59,909 bases of DNA from an uncultured virus (IMG/VR IMGVR_UViG_3300020180_000011) (IMGVR_UViG_3300020180_000011), one strand, 5' to 3'. Counted from the first letter of the stretch, positions 2,425 through 47,297 are shown. The notes: generated from the letters alone by a model not told the origin. Program-made: numbers and translations.

Positions 2425-3462
2425 ATGCGTGAAGGTTTAAAAGAGTTTTTAGGTTTAGGTGTAAGGTATTTTAGAAATGCTACAGCTAGTACTTTTGTAG
2501 GTCTAAGAGGGCCTCAAGCAGGCGACCCCGCTACTAGCTTTAATATCACATTGCCTCAAGCACTGCCTGCAGGAAGCCCTGAGGCTATGTTTATAAGTAG
2601 CTCTGGTGTAATCACTACCGCTGCCGCAGGTGGTGGTGGAAGCGTCACCAGTGTAGCTTTGAGTGTGCCTAGCATCTTATCAGTATCAGGAAGTCCTATT
2701 ACTTCTACAGGTACGCTAGCAGTGTCGTTAGCTACTCAAACAGCTAACACGGTATTTGCTGGGGCTGTATCTGACGGTGCAGCTACTCCTGCATTTAGGT
2801 CTTTGGTATATGCTGATATCTCTGCACTAGCTGGAGTAACGTCTACTACATTTGCAGTAGGTAACGATAGCAGATTTCACACTCGTAACGCAGACACAGG
2901 CACAACTAATGTGACCTTTGCTGTAGATAGTGGTGGAACTGGCCTACTCCTAAAAAATAATGCTGGAGCACTACAATTACGTAACCTAGCTGATAATGCT
3001 TTTGCCGATATTGAAGTGAATAACCTCTTAGTTAGAGGCACTACTACTACAATCAACTCAGAAACTCTTACAGTTGATGACAACATAATTGTCTTAAATA
3101 ACAATGTATCTTCAGGAACTCCTACAGAAAATGGAGGAATTGAAGTTCGTAGAGGAGCATCTACTTCAGCTACGGTATTGTGGAACGAATCTACCGACAT
3201 CTGGGAAGCTGGATTAGTTGGCGCTACTGCACCTGTTGCTCGTACTCACAGACGTACTTTAGTGAATGGTGATTTAACTGCAGGAACAGTAGCAATCACT
3301 CATGGGTTAGGTCAACAATATCTAGATGTTACAGTAGTGGATAACACGGGTAAGAAAGTAATCCCTGACGAGATTACTTACACCAATAGCACATCTTATT
3401 CGTTAGATGTCACATCTTTCGGTGCTATTACAGGAACTTGGAACATTTTAACTGTAGGCTAA
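2425..3462 (+). CDS. Tail fibre-like protein
   Basis: GSVTSVALS..GSPITSTGTL repeat and GTTTTINS..LTVDDNIIVLN..GGIEVRRG..WNES.D.W motifs typical of phage fibres. Confidence 0.75.
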   Translation: MREGLKEFLGLGVRYFRNATASTFVGLRGPQAGDPATSFNITLPQALPAGSPEAMFISSSGVITTAAAGGGGSVTSVALSVPSILSVSGSPITSTGTLAVSLATQTANTVFAGAVSDGAATPAFRSLVYADISALAGVTSTTFAVGNDSRFHTRNADTGTTNVTFAVDSGGTGLLLKNNAGALQLRNLADNAFADIEVNNLLVRGTTTTINSETLTVDDNIIVLNNNVSSGTPTENGGIEVRRGASTSATVLWNESTDIWEAGLVGATAPVARTHRRTLVNGDLTAGTVAITHGLGQQYLDVTVVDNTGKKVIPDEITYTNSTSYSLDVTSFGAITGTWNILTVG

Positions 3463-5941: not shown

Positions 5942-6673
5942 CTAAAAAGGAATGTTCTCGTAAAGCTGAGCGTACTTAAGACTAGATAACTTGTTACCCA
6001 AAATGTTGCTACCACTAAAAGATGTAGTAGATATTCCCCAGTAACTATCCTCCTCGCTGTTTCCAAATAACGACACACCATACACATCTGTAAACAATAC
6101 ACCAATATAAGGCAGCTTGACTACATCAAAACTAGCATCACCTTGTAAGAACTGCAATCCTTTATCCATTACAGTATCTCGTACAGATAACCAGTTAGGT
6201 CTAATATACTCCTCCATACCTTCCCAGTGCCTCAGAGACGAGAACGGACTTAGCTGGGCGATAGTAGAACGAGTAGAGTAGTCTTGCGTCTTCATGGCGC
6301 TGTAGTAGTTGGCTAGGGACATATACTCCACACCGTCTGAAGTAACTAGAGGCTCTTTAAATTTGGTAATAAGAATATCTTGAATAGAGAACTTATTGCC
6401 ATATCCTAGATAGGTGGACAAATACATCAAATAATTATAATCAATCTCTATCTGACCCTTGTTAACAAAGTAAATGTCTTCGTCAGTTAGATAATAATCA
6501 AAGTCTTTAAGTCTATCCGTAATCACATAATCTTTGTCATTCCAATTTAGATAGATGTCCGACCATTTAGCCCTAACCTCTAGTAAACTGTCGTCAGAAG
6601 ATATATCCGATAGCTTGTCTAGCGTCTTGTAATGAGCTTTTTCTAATGTAATGCTTTTGCTGATTTTAGCCAT
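5942..6673 (-). CDS. NADAR-domain protein with N-terminal extension
   Basis: YYSAMKT, RPNW..VRD.VM, D.YWG...G.N.LG..L NADAR motifs. Confidence 0.7.
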   Translation of the reverse strand: MAKISKSITLEKAHYKTLDKLSDISSDDSLLEVRAKWSDIYLNWNDKDYVITDRLKDFDYYLTDEDIYFVNKGQIEIDYNYLMYLSTYLGYGNKFSIQDILITKFKEPLVTSDGVEYMSLANYYSAMKTQDYSTRSTIAQLSPFSSLRHWEGMEEYIRPNWLSVRDTVMDKGLQFLQGDASFDVVKLPYIGVLFTDVYGVSLFGNSEEDSYWGISTTSFSGSNILGNKLSSLKYAQLYENIPF

Positions 6674-6730: not shown

Positions 6731-7081
6731 TTATCGCAAACGAGTTAAAGTCACTCTAACTACTCCTGCGCTACGGCCACGCAAGACATCCATAGCTGCC
6801 CTAGACATATCAACAATGCGTCCCCCAACAAAAGGGCCTCTATCATTAATACGAACCACCACAGACCTTCCTGCACTAGTAGTTACCCTAACTCTTGTTC
6901 CGCAAGGTAACGTTCTATGTGCTGCAGTCAGTGCATGCATATTAAAAGTCTCGCCACAAGCAGTTCGTCTTCCATGATAAGGATTTCCGTACCAAGAAGC
7001 AAGTCCAGTTTGTGCCGATACAGGCAAAGCAAAGGCTAACGTAGATAGTAAAGTAACCGTAACCAATCGTAGATTAATCAT
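6731..7081 (-). CDS. rlpA: RlpA-family lytic transglycosylase (DPBB) with signal peptide
   Basis: [36 protein letters not shown]...[18 protein letters not shown]. Confidence 0.92.
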
Positions 7082-7439
7082 AGAAAAACCTCGGTATGTG
7101 GGAAACTCAGTCTCTTTAGAGCTGAGAGGGAAACGGCACGGCGAATTTATTCGCCTACCCCCTTTCGGGGTGGAGGGGTATGGTTGCCCCTCCGTGGAGA
7201 TATGGTTGTCTCCGCCTCTTTCGAGGTGATGTTGGCTTTGACCTGTTATAAGAGCTTGTTAGACCTGCAACACTGTCTCAGTGACCTTAAGACTGTTTAA
7301 TTGCAGATGACAGAGCAGGGAACTAGCTTGATTCCAGGGTGTCGTGACTCAAATAACGTTTACTCTTTCAAGTGGTCTGGTCAGATTAGCTTGTTTGATT
7401 ACTCTTCCAAGCTCAGTCCTTTAGGGCTGGGTATCTGAC
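7082..7439 (-). mobile_element. Non-autonomous IS200/IS605 (IscB/HEARO-type) element with no ORF
   Basis: Begins GTCAGATACCCAGCCCTAAAGGACTGAGCTTG; near-identical subterminal hairpins at 7412-7431 and 7106-7126; right end abuts ATGA. Confidence 0.8.
7208..7439 (-). ncRNA. HEARO/omega RNA scaffold (stand-alone)
   Basis: HEARO-like blocks in order: GTCA..ACCC..CTAAAG..GCTT, TGACCAGAC, ACGTT, ACACCCTGGAAT..CTAGTTCC..GCTCTG, TTAAACAG..CAGTG, ATAAC..GTC.AAG..AACATCACC..GAAAG. Confidence 0.75.
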
Positions 7440-8639: not shown

Positions 8640-9203
8640 TTAGATGCTATGCAGTCTATTACCTCCCTGATAATGGCCGTCATACAAAGTGTCAGGAGCT
8701 TTGTCTACCTTGATAAAGTTAGCTTGTATAGCTCCTTCTAGCAAATAGAACTTAATGGGATTGGGAGTAGGGTTACTTACACCAAAAGTCAGTCGTCCCT
8801 CGTATCCTGGCTCTACTTGAGTAGAATGAGTCTTACCTCCCTGTCGAATCTCACATGTGCTCTTACCCGTAAAATTCAAGATAGTCACATCTGCTGGCAT
8901 CTTGACTAATTCTACGGTCTTCAGTAGTAAGTACTCGCCTGAGCCAATCCAGAGGTAAGTACGGCCATCTCCGTCTTGTTTGCATTGGCTCTCAATAGAA
9001 GCAGTCTCTTCGGGAGTTTGAAGTTCCCCATCTAAAGAACTTCGGAAAGTATATCCTAAAGGCTCTAGCCCATATGACCAGACTTTAGTTGTTTTGCAAG
9101 TTACGGCGTTTGTTTCAGTAGCTACTTTGATATTAATGAACGGAGTAATCAATGCAGAATCAATCGCTAGCTGTGTAATTTCTACGTCAGTTAATAGGCG
9201 CAT
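8640..9203 (-). CDS. dcd: dCTP deaminase / trimeric dUTPase-family protein
   Basis: SYGL...GY, T.E.VKMP, GKST, EPGYEGRLT, Y.GHYQ motifs. Confidence 0.8.
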   Translation of the reverse strand: MRLLTDVEITQLAIDSALITPFINIKVATETNAVTCKTTKVWSYGLEPLGYTFRSSLDGELQTPEETASIESQCKQDGDGRTYLWIGSGEYLLLKTVELVKMPADVTILNFTGKSTCEIRQGGKTHSTQVEPGYEGRLTFGVSNPTPNPIKFYLLEGAIQANFIKVDKAPDTLYDGHYQGGNRLHSI

Positions 9204-9642
9204 ACAGTTTAATCTCTACTTGTAAGTTTTCTAGACCACTGGTAATAATCTGCTTGACTTTTGACCAATCTAACGTACCCAGTCCACATCCTAGGGCAGG
9301 AATAGCAACAGACTCTAGCTTGTGGTAAATAATGGCTTTGGCTAGCTCTTTAATTCCTTTTTCTACATACTCATATTTACTAGGGTCTCTCCATGTATCT
9401 TTAGTTGCCAGCGCTATTAAAGTAACTGCACCAAGATAATCGTAGTACACAATTACTGGACGTGTAGGTACATTTAATAGACCTACCGCACATTGAGCTT
9501 TATAGTATTCGTAAAACTTAGGGTACTCCCTTTTGAATACCTTAGCTAGTCCGGCTCCCATTACTCCTTCACAATTTACTGGGCATACTAAAGCATCGCA
9601 TCCGCTTCTAAAAATATCTCCAGTTGTCTCAATGATTGGCAT
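9187..9642 (-). CDS. Macrodomain ADP-ribosylhydrolase (DarG/Poa1p-like)
   Basis: GDIF..ALVCPVNCEGVMGAGLA..FK; TK..WR.PS; AIPALGCGLG.LDW. Confidence 0.88.
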   Translation of the reverse strand: MPIIETTGDIFRSGCDALVCPVNCEGVMGAGLAKVFKREYPKFYEYYKAQCAVGLLNVPTRPVIVYYDYLGAVTLIALATKDTWRDPSKYEYVEKGIKELAKAIIYHKLESVAIPALGCGLGTLDWSKVKQIITSGLENLQVEIKLYAPIN

Positions 9643-11548: not shown

Positions 11549-11875
11549 TCATTCTAAAACCCTCAATACTTTTACGTGGTTACAAACTTTGAGCTCTTCT
11601 GGGTTGCATTCAGGTGTATCTGAAGCATACGCAGCCAGAAAATTCTCAGGGGTAGAAAAACATAGATGCACATAATAGTGTTCTGCAGGGCCAGGACTAT
11701 TGTTAAGCGCCAGCAAAGCAGGACACAAAGTAGCTACTTTTCCGATAACAGTAATGTACTGCATAGCCGCTTGTTGGGTCTTAAATGCCCGGTTTGTATG
11801 AAGATTGCCCTCTGCATCTTGCAGAATGTAGACATCTCTAATTTGCTCGGAATCAATCAGAATCGCCGCTGTCAT
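11549..11875 (-). CDS. Hypothetical protein
   Basis: ORF overlapping the end of the ligase gene. Confidence 0.6.
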   Translation of the reverse strand: MTAAILIDSEQIRDVYILQDAEGNLHTNRAFKTQQAAMQYITVIGKVATLCPALLALNNSPGPAEHYYVHLCFSTPENFLAAYASDTPECNPEELKVCNHVKVLRVLE

Positions 11876-14081
11876 AGTATTGCTCCAGGTATATTGATAC
11901 TTCCTTGATTCTCTCTTGCTCAGATAAGTTTAACCAAGCACTCTCATTGGTCGTAATTGCGATATGCTTAATAACATCCCTGTATCTAGACATATCTGAA
12001 TCTAGCTGGCTAATAAACTTCTCAGTATTGCTGAACATTAAAGCAACTTTGGAGTCACTCATCCTGCCAAAATACTTGCTAGCTAGATACCAGATAGTTT
12101 TTAACTTGAATAAAGGTGTGCCATCGTTAGCGCAAACCATCCATCCTTCAAAATTAGATACAGTGTATGTGCCCCATAGTATAGTATCTGGGCGTAAAAG
12201 CGTAGCTGGCGAGTACCAGCTAGAGAACAAGCCTGCTAAAAACATTGTACCGAGCCCAAGTAGACATTTTCCGTTATATCCAATAAGATACAAACCTTGC
12301 TGTTTTTCTGTGTAGCTAACAATATGAGGGTCTAGTAAATCCACACATTCAAAATGTAGCGTACTCGCGTAAGGCTTGTCTTGTAGCCAATCTTTAACTG
12401 CCTTGTACCTACCTTCTTTGTACAGCCATTTCTTAGCCATGTCCACATGCTCTCCTTCAAAGGAGCCACTACAGGTAACTAGTAACTCATCACAATAAGG
12501 ATGCAAGCAAATATTGACCAGGAAGCCATTGATTTTTTCTACCGCCCAGTATTCTTGCTCCACATCATATTGGTTATGCTCTTTGATTTCCATGTAGTTA
12601 AATACCCGGTCAAACACAGTATTACATGGATTGCCGTCTAAACCAAGTACAATACCTCTAGCCTCTTTTAACACCGGAAATTCCATAAAGTTACCGCTCT
12701 TAGCAAACGCTTTTTGAGTATATTTGTGCAGAGTAAGATGTCCTGTACTGTCCCTAACGCTGGACACTAACTTTTTAGGTAACTCCGCTAGCCTAGATTT
12801 GAAAGTATAAGGCTTAGATACAGAATAATCAAAGTCATCTTTCTGTTCATGTGTCTCACCTGTACGTAGGTCGTTCATACACATGTATCCTCCAAACCCT
12901 ATTCCTTTCTCAAGAACTGTAACCTGGTCAGCATTAGGGCTAGTAGGTAAGATATGTCCTCGGTAAAGATGAAAAGATGTAGAGTCGGCCTGTGGTACAC
13001 CGCTTTTTATCTGCGCCCTTGCCATACCTTCAACCCACGCATAAAATCTACCGTCTGTATCAGTCATGGAGTGATACTTAGACTCACCTCTAACTCTCTC
13101 TAGGGGCGGTTGGTTAAACAAATCAAAGTGCTCAATATCCGCATGACAAAAGATACTAACATCCGTACCAAAAGATGTAGTTTCAATCCTTACATAATGG
13201 TCAGGCAACGACTTAAAGAACTTAATTACTTTGTCAGTGTAAGCTTTGCCTTTAAGCAAGATTTGATGTGCTGTAATTTTACTGCTGTCACTATTTACCT
13301 CTTGGCCTAATAAGATACGAAGTACATTGTATTCGTGATTACCTAGAATTACATAGTGGCCCTCGCTATGTAACTGCATAACCATATCTAGACATTCAAT
13401 AGATTTAAATCCTCGGTCTACATAATCCCCTAAAAACAATGCAGTAGCCTTGAACTTAATAAAGCTCTCATACATGTCTAGAAACGTATCGTAACAGCCG
13501 TGAATATCTCCTACAACTACAATATTCTCACCATTAGGAAGTACGTAAGGAAAATCTAACTCCAGCACAACCGGAGCATTCACGACTGTATAGTTAGGAC
13601 AGACTTTAGATGTTTTTTCTAGCTGGCTATGAAATTTATCAACTACCTTGTCTGGTACGGGGGAAGTCCTCCATTCTGACCTATTGTTTAAGTGCAGTTG
13701 CTCTAAAGAAATATCAAAGATAACCAATAATACAGGCACATCGTACTTGTTAGCAATCTCTACCCACCAGTTACGTTTACCCTCTGTGGTATTAGTGGAA
13801 TCTACTACAGTAGTCAGCCCTTTGCTTAGTCGGGCATTTACTACTTGAGACATGATATCAAAGACAAAGTTATCATCCGTAGCATACGGCACCATAGCGC
13901 ATACTATCTCTTCGTTAACAGAATCTACAGGTGCTCTAGACTCACCAAAGAAGATTTTTCTATAGAAGTCAGAGCTTACTACTACTCCTGAAGGCAACCC
14001 TTTAACTGCAGAAGATTTACCAGAAGCAGGAGCACCTGAAAGAATAGTTAAACCGCCGTAAGGAATACTGATTTTTTGCAT
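11853..14081 (-). CDS. Trifunctional polynucleotide kinase / metallophosphoesterase / Rnl1-type RNA ligase
   Basis: P-loop GAPASGKS; GDIHG, GDYVDRG, GNHE; ligase motifs EKINGF, FE, EGWMV, FKLK. Confidence 0.9.
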   Translation of the reverse strand: MQKISIPYGGLTILSGAPASGKSSAVKGLPSGVVVSSDFYRKIFFGESRAPVDSVNEEIVCAMVPYATDDNFVFDIMSQVVNARLSKGLTTVVDSTNTTEGKRNWWVEIANKYDVPVLLVIFDISLEQLHLNNRSEWRTSPVPDKVVDKFHSQLEKTSKVCPNYTVVNAPVVLELDFPYVLPNGENIVVVGDIHGCYDTFLDMYESFIKFKATALFLGDYVDRGFKSIECLDMVMQLHSEGHYVILGNHEYNVLRILLGQEVNSDSSKITAHQILLKGKAYTDKVIKFFKSLPDHYVRIETTSFGTDVSIFCHADIEHFDLFNQPPLERVRGESKYHSMTDTDGRFYAWVEGMARAQIKSGVPQADSTSFHLYRGHILPTSPNADQVTVLEKGIGFGGYMCMNDLRTGETHEQKDDFDYSVSKPYTFKSRLAELPKKLVSSVRDSTGHLTLHKYTQKAFAKSGNFMEFPVLKEARGIVLGLDGNPCNTVFDRVFNYMEIKEHNQYDVEQEYWAVEKINGFLVNICLHPYCDELLVTCSGSFEGEHVDMAKKWLYKEGRYKAVKDWLQDKPYASTLHFECVDLLDPHIVSYTEKQQGLYLIGYNGKCLLGLGTMFLAGLFSSWYSPATLLRPDTILWGTYTVSNFEGWMVCANDGTPLFKLKTIWYLASKYFGRMSDSKVALMFSNTEKFISQLDSDMSRYRDVIKHIAITTNESAWLNLSEQERIKEVSIYLEQYYDSGDSD

Positions 14082-18821: not shown

Positions 18822-21800
18822 TAGTCTAGAACCTCTTTGTTAGTGATAGTACACAAAATCTTAACGTCCGGGCTCTGCTCGTTCAACCACACCCTTTGAA
18901 GAGCGTCTGATGCATATCTCAGGCCATAGCTAGTATTCTCATAGTCACTGGAAATATACGTAATAAAAGCAACAAGTAGTGGTGCTATAGAAAACTCCAT
19001 CAACAAGGAATCTTCGGCAGTCATTCTAATCCAAACGTATCCGTTGTAGTAATTGCTCACTTCATATTGCAAGAAATGTAACAAACCCTTTCCCATATTA
19101 TCGCTGTCGATTGTGAGATACTCCTGCCAAACACCGTCTAGATTTAACTTAGTGAATCTAATTTGAGTCATAGCTCAATATCCTCCCAATCATTTTTATA
19201 CTGCGTCACCGATACCGAGTAATACGCCACCTCACTTAACTTTCTGCCTGAAAATACCTGGCTGTCGTAGACAATATTTTCTTCTTCGTCGTAGTAAATA
19301 ATCTTAACCGGGCTATCTACGTACATGGTGGAAATTAGTATTGAATACTCTCTAGATTCGTGTAACTCCAATAACTTTTCTTGGAGTTTTAGGTTCATGC
19401 TAAGGATTCCAAGCTAAGGGATTGTACCGCAATGTCCAATACGCCCCAATTAATGCCTACATTTGCATCGTGCGTCTCATCTACATGTGCTAGGACTTGC
19501 CTAGCTTCATCATCACTAAGGTAAGGTGCAAGCTCAAAAACATCGTCAATATGCCAATACCGGACTAAGTAGTCACGTAAACTAACGGCTAAAATTATCT
19601 CCGCAGTTTTAGCGTCACCTTCACGTAATAGCTCCTCGTCTATTAGTGCCCTAACAATTAGTGCAATAGGATATGACATACTTAATTTCTCGCAATTAGT
19701 TTACGTCGAATATCATCAGAAGTAGGAGGCCATTTTTTCATGACTTTTAGTTTGTATCCTATCTGTTTTTCTAGCTCATCATGCAGAGGTTGATATTGCT
19801 CAGGTGTAGCTAATTTTGTAAATTGAACAATTCCCTTGTCTGTACTAGCATGTTGACCTACATGCATGTAAGAGCAGCAAGTCCACCAATCGTTAGTTCC
19901 TGGGTAATCGGGGAAGATAGCAATTACCTCCCCTTCTAGTACCCGGAATATTACTCTAGTTACTTCAGTATCTTGCTCGTCCATTAGTACTCTCCTTGTA
20001 AATAAATTACGCCTGAAAATACTTCTAGATAAGATTCACCTACGTCATCGCAGTACGTATCTAGAATTTCTCCTATCTCTTCTGGGTAGTCTCCATCCCA
20101 GAAGCCTGCCCCATGACCATTACAGTTAAGCCAGAAGTCATGCATAATCCGACTCATCTGGTGGTCATGAGAAGTCAGATAATTAATAATGCCCACATTA
20201 TCATCTAAGAACTCTTGACAAGTCTCTATCATCTTGTCTAAAGTTTTTTCATCGATGTCATGTCTATCATAGTTATTTTCTAACGAGTCATCCCCATCAT
20301 TGCTGCTCCGCAACGCTGCAATGATGTAGTCGTACAGCATACAGTCCGTTAATCTAATGTGCTTTTTAGTGCTCACGAGTAAACAACTTCCCCTAACAGA
20401 ACTTCTTGAATAATCCTATCTAAATCAATAGCATCACATCTACCATCCACAAAAGCTATCCCATATGTCAGCAGACCTAGCGCTACGACTCGTAGACCGA
20501 GGTTACGGTCAATAACGTAGTATTGTTCAGGAAGTTGCTTACCCTTCTTAAATGCCGCCACAGCTTCCCAATCTGAATCAAATGTCTCATCTAAACTTTC
20601 ACCTTGGTCGTGATGTGCTAGATGAGAGGTCATGGTGGTAGTTACTGTCTCTAGCCAAGTACCAGAGATATCACCAGAAAAGATGTCAGGTGTACCGCTA
20701 AAATAGAAACCCAGAAACTCGTTGACCATTTCTTCTACTTCGGGAGTCAGCTCTAAACTAATAATCATAATAATCCTCGTAAGTCTCAGTCAACGTAGCT
20801 TTGTACTTAGATAGCGTCACATGCAAAACTGCTCTGTCTTCTAATTCACCATGCTTAAGCCATTTGTCTGTAATCTTAGATATTTCCTTAAACAACCCAT
20901 GAGACATGTTATAAGAATCTAAGTCTCTATACCTCTTAGCCGCTCTCTGATATCCCTCCACAATCCATGAACGTACATTAGAGCGACTCCAGCAGATAGA
21001 TTGGCTATGCTCCGCGTAGTAGTCTCCCCGTACCTTATCTAGTGCAGACTCGATAGTCTCCATAGCCCAGTTTTCATGGCATAAGTGTTTAGCACCTGAG
21101 TTAGTTTCTACAAATTTACTGCCCTCGTAGTAATTAGCTAGGCTTACAATATCTGAAGCAACATCTAGCTCGGAAACATTGCGATAAGGATTAGTGCTAT
21201 AGCCCGTATCCAATCTCATCCACAGAACACCGCCTATCGCCATTAGCTCATCGGTGTACCCACAGTTATGTGCTCGTACAGGATGCTCTAGCAAGTCATG
21301 TGCTATTTGACTACCCCGAAGAGCCGGGTCAAAGTAATCTCGTTTGCCGTCAAGAATTACAATGCCATTCTCCCCGTAGTCCTCGTGTTCGCGGATAACT
21401 AAGTTGTACTTCATGAAAACCTCCTAGATAAACCCCAGACTATACAAATCTGGGGTACTGTTTTCTACTGTTAGCCCAAGATGCTTGCAGAAATCTGAAT
21501 CTCTACAACTTTGCGGTCTTCTTCAATCTCTAAACGCTCAACTAGCTGGTTGACTTGATATACTCGCAAACGATTTTCAGCAGTAGCATAGGTTTTAAAC
21601 TGATATGCTTTTGCTGGATTTGTAGTATAGGACAAGGTGTAGTTACCTCGTCGGTATACCTTCTCCCCATTAACCGTACCCAACTGAACCACGAACACGC
21701 TTGAGTTATTCATTGATTGACTCTTTGTTAATTTGTTCTAGCAAAATCAAAGCTTTCTGAGCTAGTAGATTCTTTCCTTGAGCCACGCCCATACCAAAGG

Positions 21801-40568: not shown

Positions 40569-41901
40569 GATAACGCTACTTAAGAATCTTAGTAGCCATC
40601 TGGTTAACCAAGTCAGCCTGTAAATGTCCTGTATCCCGTGATGCTAGCTTGACCCGTTGCGCTACTTCAACTTCCTTAGAAGGGATAGCCAGACGAAACA
40701 CGCTACCGGATGTAGTGGTAATCGTCACAGACTTAGATGATAGAGTCTGTACAACTGCCGCCATAGCGTTCTGTACGTCAAATGAGACTAACCACTTGCT
40801 CAAAGTGTCTACGGCTTCCGCATCAATCCCTAGCGCGGTTGTAGGTACTTCTGTATCGAATCCGGTAACGATACCGCTATCATCTACCGTCAACGTACCT
40901 AGAGCAATCTTGATAGCCGAACCAAATTGCTGAAACAAGATAGCGTTAGAGTTGTCAACAATCACGATACCGCCTAATGCTTTGTTAGCTTTGAAATACA
41001 TGAGAGTTACCTTGTGAAGTGAGTTTTGTTTTACCCGATAGACTTACATCTACGACAGTTAGACTGTAAAGGATGTTAGGTAAGTAACACCCTATGCAAT
41101 CTACTTCAGCAATCCTGCTAGTCTATCTGATGTTTTGCCCTCACCGTGCCATAAGCCATCTTGGAACGTATACATGACTTCACGACGGCTAAACATATCA
41201 GTTTTGACCAAGCTAATGACATAATCCCCATCCCTAATAAACTTGGTGATACTGTAGTCATCCTCAGCATCCTCTACGAAAGCTTCTGCTGAATTCCAAG
41301 CGCTCTCAGCTAGTCTCAGAGCTTTATAGTGCTCTAGCACTAAGGGGCTACGTGTATTCTCTTTCACTGCATCCAGCGTGTCTATCCAAGGGAACGTAGT
41401 CATGATAGTTAGTCTCTCTTTATGGTTTGTGGGATGAATGTGGCAAGTTGTTAGAGTTTATCAGGTAACAAACTAACTAGATGATTCACTGTATCCTGAG
41501 CAATATATCCCAGTTCTCTAAACGGCACTCTAACAGTGTTACTCACTAAACTCTTACCTTGAGCGGTTAAATCCCATTCACCCCCATTATCCTGTTTTAG
41601 AACTGGGAAGTATTTGAATGTAGTAGTTTTTGAATGCGTTGCGCACATCCCACAGACTACAGATTTAGCCGTGCGGCTGTAAAACAACTTTACAGGTTTG
41701 TATGTACTACTATCTACCGTTGCGGTGTACTTGCCCGCAGAATACACTTTATGCAACCAAGGAGGCTTACCTGTAACTAAGAAGTCTATCAACTCCCTCT
41801 CATCTAAGATAGGTTTGTCTGATTTCACCGTTAGGGTAGTCATGATGATTAGTCTCTTTAGGGTGAGTAGCAGTCTTACAAGACTGTAGGGAGCATACAC
41901 T

Positions 41902-42018
41902 TACATAACTCAGATGGTGAGATATTACCATCAACCGCTAGAACTAAGCTGTGCCTTAATGTACTTACAGCGCTAGTTTTAGCGGTTGTTCAGAATATCT
42001 CCTGAACTGAGTTATGTA
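41902..42018. ncRNA. Candidate four-way-junction RNA with complementary loops
   Basis: Four contiguous helices; loops GAGATATT and AATATCTC are complementary. Confidence 0.7.
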
Positions 42019-42476
42019 GCGATAGTAACTTTGTACTAGGTGTACAGTCTTTATATAACTTTACGGATGATACGTAACAGTTAATGACAGCTAACTATCT
42101 ATGTATGCTCTTTACAAGCTTGTAGTCAAGCGCTTACTTAGTGGCTAGTGCATATTCTAGGTACTGTATGGCGCTGTATCCATATTCTTCTAAGATTGCG
42201 TCATCATCCAAGCTATCCAACATAGCATCGTACAAATCACGCTGTAACGATGGCATATTGATACTTGAGTACATTTGTACCATTTCTGAAAACGTGATGT
42301 TCGAGATACTGAATTTACCGCTTTTCTGTGTTTGAGTAATTTTCATTTGGTATTTAGGCAAGTGGATATAGCAGCTAGGGAGAATATTCTCTCCCGGAAC
42401 TAATAGTCGTCTATGGTCGGTGAGTGATGGCTAGAGCTAGGTGATAGGCAGTGTCTCTTTCGTTGCTTGTCTCCCA

Positions 42477-42505
42477 AGTATAACCCTTCTAACCCGCATG
42501 TGCCA
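42477..42505 (-). promoter_or_regulatory. Possible promoter for the leftward early arm
   Basis: TGGCAC-N17-TATACT. Confidence 0.4.
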
Positions 42506-42791
42506 TACATTCCAGCTCTTTTACTATCAGGGTTATGGGGTGTTCTAGCCTAGTCCGATAGTCTCAGCTTATCTATGGGACATAGCCTTACAGGCATCTA
42601 GGGGACGATTCTAGGCTAGGTTATAGGGTCAAGGTACTAGATATCATAACAGGGTGTAGCCTAGCTTGGGGATAGCGTTAGCAGGGCATACAGGCAACAT
42701 ACAGCCGTAAACATGTGTAGTGCTAGCAGGTATCAGACATTAGGATAGTTCTGTAGGTAGCCTAGGGGATATTCCTAGGGGCTAGCAGGCG

Positions 42792-42852
42792 GGTATTGGT
42801 AGGGGATATTTAGCAGGGTATTGGTAGGGTGTTTACCCAGGTATTGGTAGGG
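42792..42852 (+). repeat. Three direct repeats of GGTATTGGTAGGG
   Basis: Copies start at 42792, 42817 and 42840. Confidence 0.9.
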
Positions 42853-43142
42853 GATTCTATGGCGCTGGCAGGTGTTAAACCTATAGCGTTAGCAGGGGTT
42901 AATCGTGGGCATTCATAGCCTGGTATCGGATATTTTGAAGACTGGTAACATCATAATATTTATCTATGGTTACCATAGATAGGTAGGTATGCCAGTAACA
43001 CAACGTAGTATGCCAGTAGTATAAGTATTTGAGGTATAGAGTGTAGTCTATGATTGGTATAGAGAGGGGGATGTGACAGTTGTTGTGCCAGTTGAGGGGG
43101 TGGTTTGGACACGGTGCTAAATACGTCTGGAAAATGTCACTT

Positions 43143-43171
43143 TTGCATAACACTCCCAAGTCTGTTATCAT
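43143..43171 (+). promoter_or_regulatory. Sigma70-type promoter for the rightward arm
   Basis: TTGCAT-N17-TATCAT with extended TG. Confidence 0.65.
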
Positions 43172-43201
43172 GAACCTACCACATAGTCATCACACCTTAA
43201 C

Positions 43202-43782
43202 ATGGCCCTACATCCCACAGACTTCCTCCAATCGCATCTAGGCGTGTCTCCAGCAGAGTTTGTAGAAGGTTCCGGAGTAATCTCCAACTTCAGGGATAAG
43301 TTCACCAGGGAGCCCTACAAGGTACGTAACGAGAGCATCACCAATCTAACTCCCATTCCAGATAAATCATTCAAGAGCATGGATGATAGTGAGGAGTTTC
43401 AAGCTAAGCAAAAGAAGAAAAGAGTAGGAAAGATTTCCAATGAGCTAACCCCTCCTATCCCTGCCGCTCTTGCCAAACAGGCAAAAGTCAAATTAGTTAA
43501 TTCCTTTAGTCCCTTAGTATAAAAATCATGAAAACCTCCTATACAATGCTCACCAAAGGTGAAGACGGCCTCAAACAATATGAGAAAATCATTGCAGTAA
43601 CCTTAGAGCTACAAAAACTGATTGATGAAATGCTAACTCCTTCTGGTCTAATGTTACCTACACAGATAATCATTAACTTGCCATCTACTAGCGAAACAGT
43701 ATCTAAGTTTATTACAGACACCAATCCAAGTACTGAGTGTCAACTAATAGTAACCACCCCTAGCACAATGAAGGTTTTATGA
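43202..43782 (+). other. Two hypothetical genes (43202-43522, 43528-43782)
   Basis: First ORFs of the + arm. Confidence 0.6.
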
Positions 43783-44087
43783 ACTACACCAACGACAACA
43801 TTGCTGAACTATTTTCATATCATCCTGCTACCCCCGAAACTACCGCCAAGTACGAAGCCATCAACAATGCAGTCATTGAGCTAGCCTATCTAGTAAATGA
43901 GTTTATTGAACAGGGTGATGGTAAACAAAACGCCATGTACCAATTGAATATTGCTCGTATGTCGATTAATTCGGCTATTGCTAACGATGTAGTTTTCGAG
44001 CATAAACTAAACGAGATGTATGCTTCTGAAGAGTACCGTGCTAAAGTTGCAGCTGACCATGCACGATATGCTTTGCTTCGTACATAA
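43779..44087 (+). CDS. Acb2/Tad1-like helical-hairpin protein (possible cyclic-nucleotide sponge)
   Basis: F.YH.......YEAI.....LA........K..A...L..A.M..N.AIA pattern. Confidence 0.6.
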   Translation: MNYTNDNIAELFSYHPATPETTAKYEAINNAVIELAYLVNEFIEQGDGKQNAMYQLNIARMSINSAIANDVVFEHKLNEMYASEEYRAKVAADHARYALLRT

Positions 44088-44106: not shown

Positions 44107-44646
44107 ATGCGAAACAAACCTATTAAGATGAGCAGCGCAGCTGGCGCAGGGAACGCAGTGACCAAGCTAAAAGAGAGACAGTATGGCAATGCATTCCTTT
44201 CTCTCAATCAAGTAGGCACTCTACAAAGAGAAGTAGTCACTCCGGTAGGCAACATAGACTTCATCTGGCATCACCCCGCTAGAGGTACGGGTATAGTAGA
44301 ACTCAAGCACTACAAAAGTATCAAACATGCTATAGGACAAGTGTTGGCCTATCGGCCCTTTGTACCTAACTGTAGTTTCTTAGAGATTGTTTACTTCGAG
44401 TACTGCGTAGCAAAGAACGTTTCCTTGCCCAAGGTGGATGCTTCATATGCTAGCCTATCTCGCAACAACAACATACCCCTAATGTTTTCTAACGTTCTTC
44501 AGTATGTTCCTCTGAATTATTTATTAGAGCTATCAAAACCGTGCGAAGAAGAGCAGATTTCAGAAGCAAATATAACTTACACCATGATATCAACAATCCC
44601 CATCTCAAGCATGGAAGACCCCAACCAGAGGCATATGCAATGGTAA
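44107..44646 (+). CDS. PD-(D/E)XK nuclease-like protein
   Basis: REV.TPVGNID...IVELK...KHAIGQVLAY. Confidence 0.7.
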   Translation: MRNKPIKMSSAAGAGNAVTKLKERQYGNAFLSLNQVGTLQREVVTPVGNIDFIWHHPARGTGIVELKHYKSIKHAIGQVLAYRPFVPNCSFLEIVYFEYCVAKNVSLPKVDASYASLSRNNNIPLMFSNVLQYVPLNYLLELSKPCEEEQISEANITYTMISTIPISSMEDPNQRHMQW

Positions 44647-45434
44647 ACAACTATGATGAAGTTCCTGCTCAACCGGAGAACCTACCTATTGAACTATCAG
44701 GTAGCATTGCTCCTAAGTATGTAGAAGAGCCTGAAGATACGAATAGTGAGCATCTTTTCAGCCACTTATCTGTCAATCCTGTAGTCAGAGTTAACCCTAC
44801 AGATAGCATCAACCACAGCTCTTGGACTGAAATTAAGCAGGCATACATCCTAGGAGAAAGAGGAGTATCAGATTCTGGTGCAATCATCTCCAATGACATT
44901 TCCTTGCGGCAGATTTCATTTCTTTACAGGGTGAGCTACAAGACTATTAGAGGCAGAGCTAAATCTGAAGGATGGTTGAAGCATAGGCAAGCCTATCTAA
45001 CTCGCATCAACGATATCAATGCAGGTATGTTGCTTGACTATCACAACCAAGAAGCACTAGACTCAGAAGCTGCATCAGCCAACGCACTAACCAAGATTCT
45101 AGTAGTACTGGATACCTTCATAGACAGTAAGTATGGAGATATACTAGCTACTATGGATGACCCTACTAAACAATTGACTTCATCTGACAAAGAAGCTATT
45201 GTAGGTCAGACCTCAGTAACAGAGCTAAAAGAGTTAACCAATATGCTTGGTAACATCTACAAAACTCAAAGAACCATCTACGATAACTCCCCTACGGGAC
45301 AACAGGCTAAGATACAACTAGAGCAACAGAAATCTGGTAAGTTTACAGGTGAAGGTGACACCGCCCTGACTGACAAACAAAGAAGCGCTTTGATTAACTC
45401 TGTTAGAGCTAAATTGGATAACCTATCGTCCTAG
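44640..45434 (+). CDS. Putative terminase small subunit (start revised to MVNN)
   Basis: W.EIK.AY..G...SLRQI...VS..TIR.RAK.EGW HTH; directly upstream of TerL. Confidence 0.65.
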   Translation: MVNNYDEVPAQPENLPIELSGSIAPKYVEEPEDTNSEHLFSHLSVNPVVRVNPTDSINHSSWTEIKQAYILGERGVSDSGAIISNDISLRQISFLYRVSYKTIRGRAKSEGWLKHRQAYLTRINDINAGMLLDYHNQEALDSEAASANALTKILVVLDTFIDSKYGDILATMDDPTKQLTSSDKEAIVGQTSVTELKELTNMLGNIYKTQRTIYDNSPTGQQAKIQLEQQKSGKFTGEGDTALTDKQRSALINSVRAKLDNLSS

Positions 45435-45635: not shown

Positions 45636-47297
45636 TTGACTAAGAGCATAGGCGGTACGTCTGACACATATTCTCACCTATCTGACTATGAGCTACTACA
45701 ACTAAACAAAGCTCTAGTAGAAGAGATGTATGAGGCTAGTGAGAAATCACTGTACTCATTTTTTATTAACTTTTGGAACACGTTTGACCCTAGTGTGTTG
45801 GTAAGTAACTGGCACCTAGAATGTCTATGTGAGCATGCTGAAGCAGCCGCTAACCGAGAGATACGTAGGCTCACAGTAACCATTCCGCCTCGGATGAGCA
45901 AGTCTACAGTGCATTCTATGTGCTTACCTGCATGGCAGTTGTTGAGACAACCAGACGAAGAGTTCTGGCTAATGAGTCATACGTTAGACCTATGTATTCA
46001 GAACATTAGATACACCAGACGTATCTTTGACCATCCTCTATACAAAGACAGATGGTTAGATGTCAATAGTCCTAACTACCGCTTCTCATTAGCTAGTGAC
46101 CAGAATACTAAGACTCGTATTGATACCAGTAAAGGTGGAGGTATTAAGAGCGGTGCTCCTAGGTCATCTGTCTTAGGAAAAGGCTATACCATAGCAGTCT
46201 TAGATGACATGCTTGACTCCCAGGACTGGAATAACCCAGCAGGTATACAAGAGGTCAATGACTGGTATTCACAGACTTTCATGAACCGTTCTAATGACAA
46301 CAACAACGATGTAGTCATCAATGTACAACAGAGACTAGCAGCATCTGACTTACATTCATATGTCATGGATTCTTACAAAGAACAAGGATGGTTTCATCTC
46401 AACTTACCTGCTAGGTACGATAGCAAGAAGACATTTTTTAGTCCTATAGGATTTAACGACAAGCGCAGCAAAGAACGAGAATTACTTGATGGCGTTCGCC
46501 TATCTGACAGCTTCCTGATAGAGCAAGAAAAGAACCCTATCATCTATCAGACTAGGTATCAACAAGACCCTGACCTATCTAACGACACTAACTTTTTTCT
46601 AGCGGATTATTGGCAGACAACTCCCTTCAAGAATATATCTAGAGAACAGCAAGTTATTGTATGGGATTTGTCATTTACAGATAGTCCTAAGTCTACATAC
46701 ACAGTTGGATTGGTAATGGAGCTATACCAAGATAATTACTATGTTGTAGATATGTACCGCAAACTGGCTGACCCTACTATGCAGGTAGAAGCAGTTGAAA
46801 GGATGTATAGGAAATATCCGTATGCTATCACAGCTATTGAGCTGAAAGCCAATGGTCACTCTGTAGTTAACACACTAGAAACTAGGGTACCTAAGATACT
46901 CAAACTAGAGCCTAGACATTATGGTGGTAGCAAGTCCCAAAGATTTGGTTCAATCATGCATCTATGCAAATCCAAAAAGGTATGGTTCTATGCACCTAAC
47001 ATGATTGACAGCAAGCTAGAGCCTGATTACTATGTGGAAGACATCCAGAAGGAGTTAACTGGCTTTCCTTTGTTCCAGCACAACGACATAGTAGATTGTT
47101 TTTCTTACGGTCTTCAGGTTCTTCAACAGTTCTCAGGAGATAATACTCTAATGGTTACTGGAGGAGAGCAGATGAAAGTATCAGATGCTGACTGGGATAG
47201 GAAGCCTACTATCTATGATGTATCTCAAGACCATATGCTAGATGTTTATGTAGATGCACTATCTAGCAGACAAGATATTTTGGACATGCAATGGTAA
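45636..47297 (+). CDS. terL: Terminase large subunit
   Basis: NWHL..LC; IPPRMSKST Walker A; AVLDD Walker B; YQQ.P; nuclease motifs WDLS and HNDIVD. Confidence 0.92.
   Translation: MTKSIGGTSDTYSHLSDYELLQLNKALVEEMYEASEKSLYSFFINFWNTFDPSVLVSNWHLECLCEHAEAAANREIRRLTVTIPPRMSKSTVHSMCLPAWQLLRQPDEEFWLMSHTLDLCIQNIRYTRRIFDHPLYKDRWLDVNSPNYRFSLASDQNTKTRIDTSKGGGIKSGAPRSSVLGKGYTIAVLDDMLDSQDWNNPAGIQEVNDWYSQTFMNRSNDNNNDVVINVQQRLAASDLHSYVMDSYKEQGWFHLNLPARYDSKKTFFSPIGFNDKRSKERELLDGVRLSDSFLIEQEKNPIIYQTRYQQDPDLSNDTNFFLADYWQTTPFKNISREQQVIVWDLSFTDSPKSTYTVGLVMELYQDNYYVVDMYRKLADPTMQVEAVERMYRKYPYAITAIELKANGHSVVNTLETRVPKILKLEPRHYGGSKSQRFGSIMHLCKSKKVWFYAPNMIDSKLEPDYYVEDIQKELTGFPLFQHNDIVDCFSYGLQVLQQFSGDNTLMVTGGEQMKVSDADWDRKPTIYDVSQDHMLDVYVDALSSRQDILDMQW

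Follow-up and report, generated by a model that had tools for sequence, protein, structure and literature searches.

The 117 nt at positions 41902–42018 of this uncultured phage form a real and statistically exceptional structured element, and the reading we favor, with a probability of roughly 40%, is that they belong to a new structured phage RNA that sits at the switch of the early region and is expressed at least from the + strand. The evidence bearing on expression and conservation is modest and indirect, and we infer the production of RNA, the strand used and the regulatory role of the element from the observations set out below. Within the window, by which we mean the whole 59,909-nt stretch of DNA that was analyzed, the element and the module around it are made up of the following parts:

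41877–41899, + strand: 5' arm of the outer closing stem, pairing with 42102–42124 (inverted repeat I2, 23 nt, 83% complementary)
41902–41912, + strand: 5' arm of P1 of the 117-nt domain, partner 42008–42018
41913–41932, + strand: P2 hairpin, stem GATGGT/ACCATC (41913–41918 with 41927–41932), loop GAGATATT (41919–41926)
41933–41987, + strand: P3 long hairpin, 14 bp (41933–41946 with 41974–41987)
41948–41953 with 41966–41971, + strand: P3 extension, 6 bp, apical loop 41954–41965
41988–42007, + strand: P4 hairpin, stem GTTCAG/CTGAAC (41988–41993 with 42002–42007), loop AATATCTC (41994–42001)
42008–42018, + strand: 3' arm of P1, partner 41902–41912
42020–42100, + strand: domain 2, three short hairpins, branched, inside the same outer stem
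42102–42124, + strand: 3' arm of the outer closing stem

An index check placed all helices and both loops where a preliminary description of this DNA had put them, and agreed with it that the P2 and P4 loops are exact reverse complements (8 of 8 bases) and that P3 holds two G-U pairs on the + strand (G41941–U41979 and G41953–U41966). The four-way junction without linker bases proposed there is the MFE structure of the + strand, in which the P2 stem lengthens to 8 bp and its loop is reduced to 4 nt. The span originally drawn, 41902–42018, stands as a real domain, but it is only the left-hand domain of a stem-closed module of ~250 nt (41877–42124), in which the 23-nt inverted repeat closes a three-branch structure with the 117-nt domain and domain 2. 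Both strands form this outer stem, in the MFE fold and in the centroid alike.

The predicted fold is extreme on either strand. The + strand of the 117-nt domain folds at −56.1 kcal/mol (z −10.12), a stability reached by none of 200 dinucleotide shuffles, and the − strand at −52.4 kcal/mol (z −9.71), so that the advantage of the + strand is 3.7 kcal/mol over 117 nt; over 261 nt it is 7.6 kcal/mol (−103.0 versus −95.4 kcal/mol). For the 290-nt gap between genes in which the module lies, the values are −108.1 kcal/mol (z −7.21) on the + strand and −98.7 kcal/mol (z −7.44) on the − strand. When the whole window was scanned in sliding frames of 120 nt with normalization for GC content, the element ranked second on each strand, and the sites that outranked it were a HEARO RNA region on the + strand and 20071–20190 on the − strand, with no others. 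The architecture itself, defined as two hairpins whose loops share 6 or more complementary bases, closed flush by a stem of 6 bp or longer and combined with a middle helix of 5 bp or longer, was searched for in ~343 kb on both strands; the element is the sole match in the window, and two related phage genomes (146,347 and 137,012 bases, both strands) hold no match. The element is thus a non-chance feature.

Each of the P2 and P4 stems is self-complementary at 6 of 6 positions, and cross-comparison of the P2 and P4 arms gives 2 of 6 Watson-Crick pairs each. Because the two stems are mutually unrelated, the element is not a long (perfect) palindrome that has decayed. The side hairpins and the 8/8 match between their loops are separate features, each of which is unlikely to have arisen by chance, and two independent hairpins with loops matched in this way are improbable without selection.

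On both strands the centroid differs from the junction: it is one extended hairpin, and the two 8-nt "loops" are paired with each other as a helix within it. In this hairpin P1, the 8-nt loop-loop helix and P3 are stacked, and the bases of the P2 and P4 stems lie in internal loops. Shares of the two folds in the ensemble of the + strand RNA were calculated from constrained partition functions, and the junction and the extended hairpin were found to take 0.85 and 0.13 at 15 °C, 0.68 and 0.29 at 25 °C, 0.39 and 0.53 at 37 °C, and 0.15 and 0.70 at 50 °C. As the shares of the junction and the extended hairpin are near equal at 37 °C, the 117-nt domain is predicted to be bistable. The junction with kissing loops is a possible third form, which pseudoknot-free folding does not score. 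The preliminary description had gone further and read the matched loops as kissing or self-oligomerizing in the manner of a pRNA; this is not required, since the same 8 bases pair as an ordinary helix in the near-isoenergetic extended hairpin. As readings of the loop complementarity, kissing loops and this helix are equally good.

The pRNA of phage phi29 (RF00044) is an early-region phage RNA of ~117–120 nt with two mutually complementary loops on one molecule. The element is like it in size, in its place in a phage early region and in its complementary loops, and differs from it in geometry: pRNA has a three-way junction and 4-nt loops that pair between molecules, whereas the junction predicted here joins four helices perfectly, and its 8-nt loops are also able to pair intramolecularly as an ordinary helix. 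The packaging context differs as well, as this phage carries a TerL/TerS-type packaging module and not one of the phi29 type. By analogy with pRNA, the P2 loop of one molecule might pair with the P4 loop of another, and the resulting dimers or rings might serve as a scaffold or as part of a motor; we regard this as a very slight chance. Such self-assembly would make use of the exact 8-nt complementarity on opposite arms of the junction, whose duplex by itself is worth −6.7 kcal/mol, and of the P2 and P4 stems having been kept distinct, with the hairpins not merged into one helix. On the other side stand a packaging system (TerL with a weak TerS-like match) that needs no pRNA, the partial closing of the P2 loop to 4 nt in the MFE fold, the extended hairpin, which satisfies the loop complementarity within one molecule, and searches that found no pRNA model or other Rfam match even at E up to 10.

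These searches agree with the earlier statement that the element belongs to no recognized family. A search of the whole window at Rfam gathering thresholds returned HEARO only, cmscan of 41600–42500 at E up to 10 returned four chance-level matches, none of them pRNA, and the best Rfam match overlapping the element scored 16.4 bits against a gathering threshold of 91 (E 9.5, Rfam 15), so that families such as 6S, Y RNA, SRP, the riboswitches and ribozymes of the twister-sister or hairpin kind gave no match near threshold. ARAGORN found 0 tRNA or tmRNA genes in the window, Rfam likewise gave no match to tRNA or TLS, and a single literature search on the non-coding RNAs of Pseudanabaena-type cyanophages returned nothing relevant. 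The element is unclassified and matches no known RNA family. We also rejected a ribozyme, given the perfect helices, no internal-loop core and no Rfam match, and a retron or DGR, as the Pfam scan found no RT domain among 91 ORFs and the neighbors are family-less proteins of 130 and 75 aa. The tRNA cloverleaf shares with the element a junction of four helices in which opposite side loops are able to touch (D and T in tRNA, P2 and P4 here), but the helices of the element are longer (11, 6–8, 14+6 and 6 bp) and it is without junction linkers, CCA and the conserved tRNA bases. In its boldest form, which we consider improbable, the RNA reading would make the element a new class of phage RNA fold, a linker-free four-way junction with opposite arms locked by an 8-bp loop-loop helix, either within one molecule (as a giant tRNA-like elbow) or between molecules (as dimers or rings), that could flip to the extended hairpin as a switch driven by temperature or a factor and that would be made early from the strand opposite the early genes.

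The module lies close to the point at which the two gene arms of the phage diverge, in the following setting:

41451–41843, − strand: downstream flanking gene, 130 aa, codon score 0.21 bits per codon
42134–42361, − strand: upstream flanking gene, 75 aa, no family, codon score ~+0.21 bits per codon
42362–43201, no strand: repeat-rich non-coding region of 840 nt between the leftward and rightward gene arms, with iteron-like direct repeats; a probable promoter or origin region

The gap at 41844–42133 (290 nt) holds short shadow ORFs and nothing beyond them, in keeping with the earlier description of it as ORF-free. ORFs on the + strand at 41698–41889 and 42141–42335 were rejected as genes on codon scores at or below 0, and a 90-aa ORF at 42899–43171 also scores at or below 0. 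No family was found for the 130-aa protein in PHROG and Pfam searches, and the flanking proteins have no relatives in IMG/VR; indeed, few of the window proteins scanned with PHROGs or Pfam belong to any family. The gene plan is that of a tailed phage, with a long leftward array of small genes up to 42361 and rightward genes from 43202, which include TerL (45636–47297; phrog_38, E 3.6e-62). A weak match of small-terminase type lies at 44541–45434. By TerL, the nearest named phages are the Pseudanabaena phages PA-SR01 (36.5%) and Pam2 (35.9%), and the TerL of one IMG/VR contig stands at 52%. With coding-like genes on the − strand to either side, transcription of that strand probably runs through the element too.

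The DNA of this phage was found in three public runs, from a microbial mat (its probable source), a second mat and freshwater, and the variant contigs in two of the sets (X2 and X3) allow part of the module to be compared. The X3 contigs, which leave 41444–41927 uncovered, span 41957–42124, and the differences listed for them begin no further left than 42054, which leaves the 3' half of the 117-nt domain (62 nt, 41957–42018) without a listed change. Domain 2 in X2 and X3 and the non-coding DNA further to the right differ at ~10% of positions. The X3 variant contig diverges from the window just 5' of 41957, because of which we take the tip of P3 to be variable. The X2 contig, which covers nothing left of 42016, retains 42017–42132 with 14 differences, and the X2 relative has exchanged 42133–42461, including the 75-aa gene, for 126 other bases, so that the element was kept while the adjoining gene was exchanged.

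The differences listed were mapped onto the + strand fold, an exercise that is not a proper covariation test. Domain 2 has one compensatory pair (T42061C with A42077G, in both X2 and X3), two changes that turn a Watson-Crick pair into a G-U pair on the + strand only (C42091T and A42094G) and at least three that break predicted pairs (T42048G, T42054G and A42087C), and two of the mapped changes fall on unpaired bases. In the outer stem, the pairs that work only on the − strand are as many as those that work only on the + strand. Relatives in X2 and X3 keep part of the module and show a compensatory pair; the 117-nt domain is without covariation, because no variation was seen within it. Searches further afield returned no homolog. 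We found no match to 41400–42400 by blastn among 50,697 phage records and no copy of the P4 20-mer in IMG/VR, and the one place in the JGI metagenome contigs where a 22-mer of the module turned up is a CRISPR spacer. The covariance model R1, built from the single sequence, recovered the element alone when run over the window (141.9 bits on the + strand and 90.5 on the − strand) and, at E up to 10, hit neither of the two phage records tried, which were PA-SR01 (137 kb) and the 146-kb relative from IMG/VR. When the module was compared by blastn-short with the window and with a relative (L001), chance 11–13-mers were the only matches, and the window holds no second copy.

These comparisons bear on whether the element might be a functionless leftover, such as the remnant of a small palindromic mobile element between two genes. 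Terminal inverted repeats (41877–41899 and 42102–42124) do bound a compact non-coding unit, and the adjoining DNA is mosaic among relatives, as such an origin would allow. Nevertheless, we judge it very unlikely: the element is single-copy in the window, absent from IMG/VR (as judged by the 20-mer), from the JGI contigs apart from the spacer (22-mer) and from the two related phages, and in X3 it is better conserved than its surroundings among the differences listed, quite apart from the improbability of two independent hairpins with 8/8 matched loops arising without selection. A MITE or an element resembling the end of an insertion sequence was rejected on the same lack of a second copy in the window, of the 20-mer in IMG/VR and of the 22-mer in the JGI contigs other than as a spacer.

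In the metagenome contig scan, the 22-mer, which is conserved in the three runs, was found in one metagenome contig (L002), and this contig is a CRISPR array with 58 repeats and 57 spacers. Its spacer 33 corresponds to the following site:

42019–42059, + strand: protospacer of L002 spacer 33, matching at 39 of 41 positions, the spacer having the letters of the + strand

This spacer shares the T42054G variant with X2 and X3. Ten spacers of the array match the window at E below 1e-3, nine of them at 33.5–47.2 kb, around the divergent region. With the array read in one orientation, eight of the nine gene-borne spacers have sense letters (sp1, sp11, sp37 and sp47 in − strand genes; sp4, sp29, sp30 and sp42 in + strand genes), and the antisense exception is sp2, in TerL. 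No PAM or other conserved flank is present on either side of the protospacers. A further 273 distinct spacers from cyanobacterial genomes with the same repeat gave no credible match to the window.

The 36-nt repeat of the array is shared by Phormidesmis priestleyi, two Myxacorys species, Coleofasciculus, an Elainellaceae MAG and others, and the repeat family belongs to thin filamentous cyanobacteria. In all five examined loci with effector genes (L003, L004, L009, L014 and L015), cmr genes lie beside the repeat; the five loci encode Cas10/Cmr2, Cmr4 and a Csm6-like protein, and L015 adds Cmr3 and Cmr6/Cmr1. Cas1 is present in L003, L004, L009 and L014, and L006 has a Cas1 fragment only. The repeat family is a type III-B system, which recognizes RNA. 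In the orientation that gives the sense letters, the repeat reads ...ATGGAAAC at its end, and the flanking cas genes point in that direction in all six genomic loci examined; in L004 and L006 a degenerate terminal repeat lies distal to cas1. From the direction of the cas genes and the position of the degenerate repeat, the orientation of the array is set independently of the sense bias alone. With a type III-B system and a fixed orientation, the crRNAs of the array would be complementary to mRNA, and that of spacer 33 to a + strand RNA at 42019–42059.

The site has the features of a type III-B target, with a matching spacer, a cmr-linked repeat, no PAM and a sense bias, and the orientation of this one spacer suggests that a + strand RNA exists there. 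The coding-strand bias of type III spacers is reported as 65% (mean) and, for one III-B set, as 88% (PMC8482600), and another study reportedly places the peak of type III acquisition just downstream of early phage promoters, with more acquisition when translation is abolished (PMC13575424). The strand assignment comes from a single spacer, in an array where one of nine gene-borne spacers runs the wrong way, and with a cautious prior we hold transcription of the + strand at the element to be somewhat better than an even bet. The + strand had initially been favored on the two G-U pairs of P3, and that guess has now gained independent support from the orientation of a spacer of the type III-B family, alongside the slightly greater stability of the + strand fold.

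Signals for the start and end of transcription are sparse around the element. No convincing sigma-70-type promoter lies upstream of it on the + strand, the best candidate being TACACT at 41743 with a −35 box matching at three of six positions, and sigma-70-like sites occur at chance level (6 found versus 5.6 expected). The best promoter-like site of the region is on the − strand (ATGGCA-18-TATACT, 42506–42477), upstream of the 75-aa gene. A k-mer search for a phage-specific promoter motif found only the ribosome-binding cassette common to the leftward genes. There are 0 terminator-like sites in 41000–43600 on both strands and no T run after the outer stem on either strand, on which grounds an intrinsic terminator was rejected.

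The element might instead have a role in cis. It would then be a structure carried by the early polycistronic mRNA of the leftward (− strand) arm, immediately behind the first small gene, and would act, by analogy with known phages, as an RNase III-type processing or stability signal or as an antitermination RNA that modifies the polymerase. The early mRNA of phage T7 has intergenic RNase III sites, and nutR of lambda and putR of HK022 follow cro. The position is alike in these cases (in an early operon, after the first small gene), whereas the known structures are single or double hairpins of ~60–70 nt on the sense strand and the element is part of a branched module of ~250 nt whose strand clue is opposite. 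We consider a cis-acting structure in the mRNA a serious alternative, if rather unlikely. Both flanking genes are coding-like and on the − strand, downstream of the best promoter-like site and with no terminator between them; the − strand fold is extreme in its own right (z −9.7 over 117 nt and −7.4 over 290 nt); and the replacement of the small gene in X2 would put the element in a 5' leader. Set against this are the orientation of spacer 33, which points to a + strand RNA in an array where eight of nine spacers read sense, the lower stability of the − strand (by 3.7 to 9.4 kcal/mol), the G-U pairs of P3, which become C-A mismatches on that strand, and the two side hairpins with matched loops, which would be superfluous in a processing hairpin.

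For an RNA gene the greatest problem, and the main argument against our reading, is that the two strands are almost equally stable, which is more typical of a DNA palindrome; by contrast, a structured region in a relative (L001:2780–3260) folds at −162.7 versus −108.7 kcal/mol on its two strands, a difference of 54 kcal/mol. The element could instead act at the DNA level as a nested palindrome, either through a cruciform or single-stranded fold in an origin, recombination or packaging signal, or as two 20-bp palindromes that serve as protein-binding sites, and we hold this to be unlikely. Its stems are almost purely Watson-Crick, it lies 0.35–1.3 kb from the 840-nt non-coding region with the iteron-like direct repeats, and the cumulative GC skew turns at ~40–44 kb, although such a turn is equally expected from the switch in gene orientation. 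In X2 the boundary of the swapped segment is 8 nt from the outer stem, and in X3 the lack of any listed difference at 41957–42018, against ~10% nearby, suggests constraint on the sequence itself. The T-shaped terminal hairpins of AAV type show a comparable design, a nested palindrome in the style A-B-B'-C-C'-A' that forms a branched junction in ssDNA, but they have three arms and lie at the ends of ssDNA genomes, whereas the element has four arms and is internal in the dsDNA genome of a tailed phage. The Pfam scan of 91 window ORFs found no replication initiator, integrase, protelomerase, resolvase, nickase or Rep protein, although most proteins of this phage are family-less. A telomere-resolution site was rejected because the center of the large palindrome is asymmetric, with 27 nt between the arms, and the retention of a type III spacer against the site argues for transcription.

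For the favored reading, a new structured RNA expressed at least from the + strand, the following mechanism may be envisaged. In a phage of thin filamentous cyanobacteria, a + strand RNA antisense to the flanking genes would be made from the 290 nt that separate the first gene of the leftward arm from the second, and would exist in two states, a four-way junction of P1–P4 that presents the two 8-nt loops, and an extended hairpin in which the two 8-nt segments are paired and the P2 and P4 stems are open. As the helices are nearly all Watson-Crick, the leftward early transcript would bear the mirror-image fold with complementary loops. Pairing of sense and antisense RNA would start at these loops, at the early-region switch, and could cause the leftward early mRNA to be processed or shut off downstream of the first small gene. 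Of the two partners in such a cis-antisense pair, one spacer implies the + strand RNA through its orientation, and the flanking genes imply the − strand RNA. The most economical mechanism is loop-initiated pairing of the two RNAs, after which the early mRNA would be processed or shut off, but its probability is low at best.

Antisense RNAs with kissing hairpins, RNA I/RNA II of ColE1 and CopA/CopT of R1, control plasmid copy number from defined promoters and terminators. The likeness, for which we claim no homology, is that of a structured RNA opposite a transcript with mirror-image hairpins, with pairing that starts loop to loop; unlike the element, these systems have no four-way junction with mutually complementary loops.

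Should the RNA exist, a nearly uncharacterized group of cyanophages would supply a compact, fully paired four-way junction with loop complementarity, a type of fold that is of interest as a bistable switch found in nature and as a component for RNA self-assembly. If the action of the element is instead on the DNA, it would point to the core of replication or recombination in this group of phages. For an uncultured phage, the orientation of type III CRISPR spacers has served here as a stand-in for transcript data, and the same approach is applicable to other candidate non-coding RNAs in metagenomic viruses.

The two gene arms, with leftward genes ending at 42361 and rightward genes starting at 43202, are separated by 840 nt without coding sequence (42362-43201), in which the cumulative GC skew turns and a 90-aa ORF has a codon score typical of non-coding DNA. 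Several families of direct repeats occur within this region:

GGTATTGGTAGGGGAT, three copies at a spacing of 23-25 nt
TAGCGTTAGCAGG, three copies
GCCTTACAGGCA, three copies

Part of the region (~42375-42700) is retained at roughly 90% in contigs of related phages from two public DNA sequencing runs, X2 and X3. We consider 42362-43201 likely to be a promoter or origin core.

In the relative from run X2, 126 unrelated bases stand in place of window positions 42133-42461 (329 bases, including the 75-aa gene), and the four-way-junction element has its outer stem 8 nt away from the left breakpoint of this replacement. The replacement looks like a mosaic gene exchange at the edge of the element. On the leftward arm, two adjacent genes share a 22-nt start cassette with 91% identity (41396-41417 and 41836-41857), consisting of a leader plus ATGACTAC, and a leader motif with TAAGGAG is common to many other leftward genes.

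The IMG/VR relative L001, whose TerL is 52% identical to that of the window phage, carries a strongly strand-asymmetric structured region between leftward genes (2780-3260; the - strand has a predicted folding energy of -162.7 kcal/mol with z -4.84, the + strand one of -108.7 kcal/mol with z -1.14). This region had no match in Rfam and did not resemble the window's element in sequence; its - strand may represent a different, so far unrecognised phage RNA. An Rfam search of the window itself returned a full-length match to HEARO (omega-RNA-like) at 7226-7439 (-), scoring 128.7 bits where the gathering score is 83. This match is not followed by an ORF of IscB/IsrB size, and the next - strand ORF (6731-7081, 116 aa) encodes a DPBB_1 lytic-transglycosylase-like protein. 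The match may represent a phage-borne orphan element resembling a guide RNA.

Four genes look like counter-defence genes:

43779-44087 (+), Acb2/Tad1-hairpin-domain protein
9187-9642 (-), Macro-domain protein
5942-6673 (-), NADAR, a weak match below Pfam's cut-off
11853-14081 (-), polynucleotide kinase-phosphatase/RNA ligase fusion of 742 aa

A host assignment for the phage comes from spacer matches in a metagenome contig (L002, 4388 nt) that is a CRISPR array over its whole length, and whose repeats belong to a type III-B-linked family of thin filamentous cyanobacteria. Ten of its 57 spacers match the window phage, nine of these within 33.5-47.2 kb, and one matches TerL perfectly (41/41; 47099-47139).
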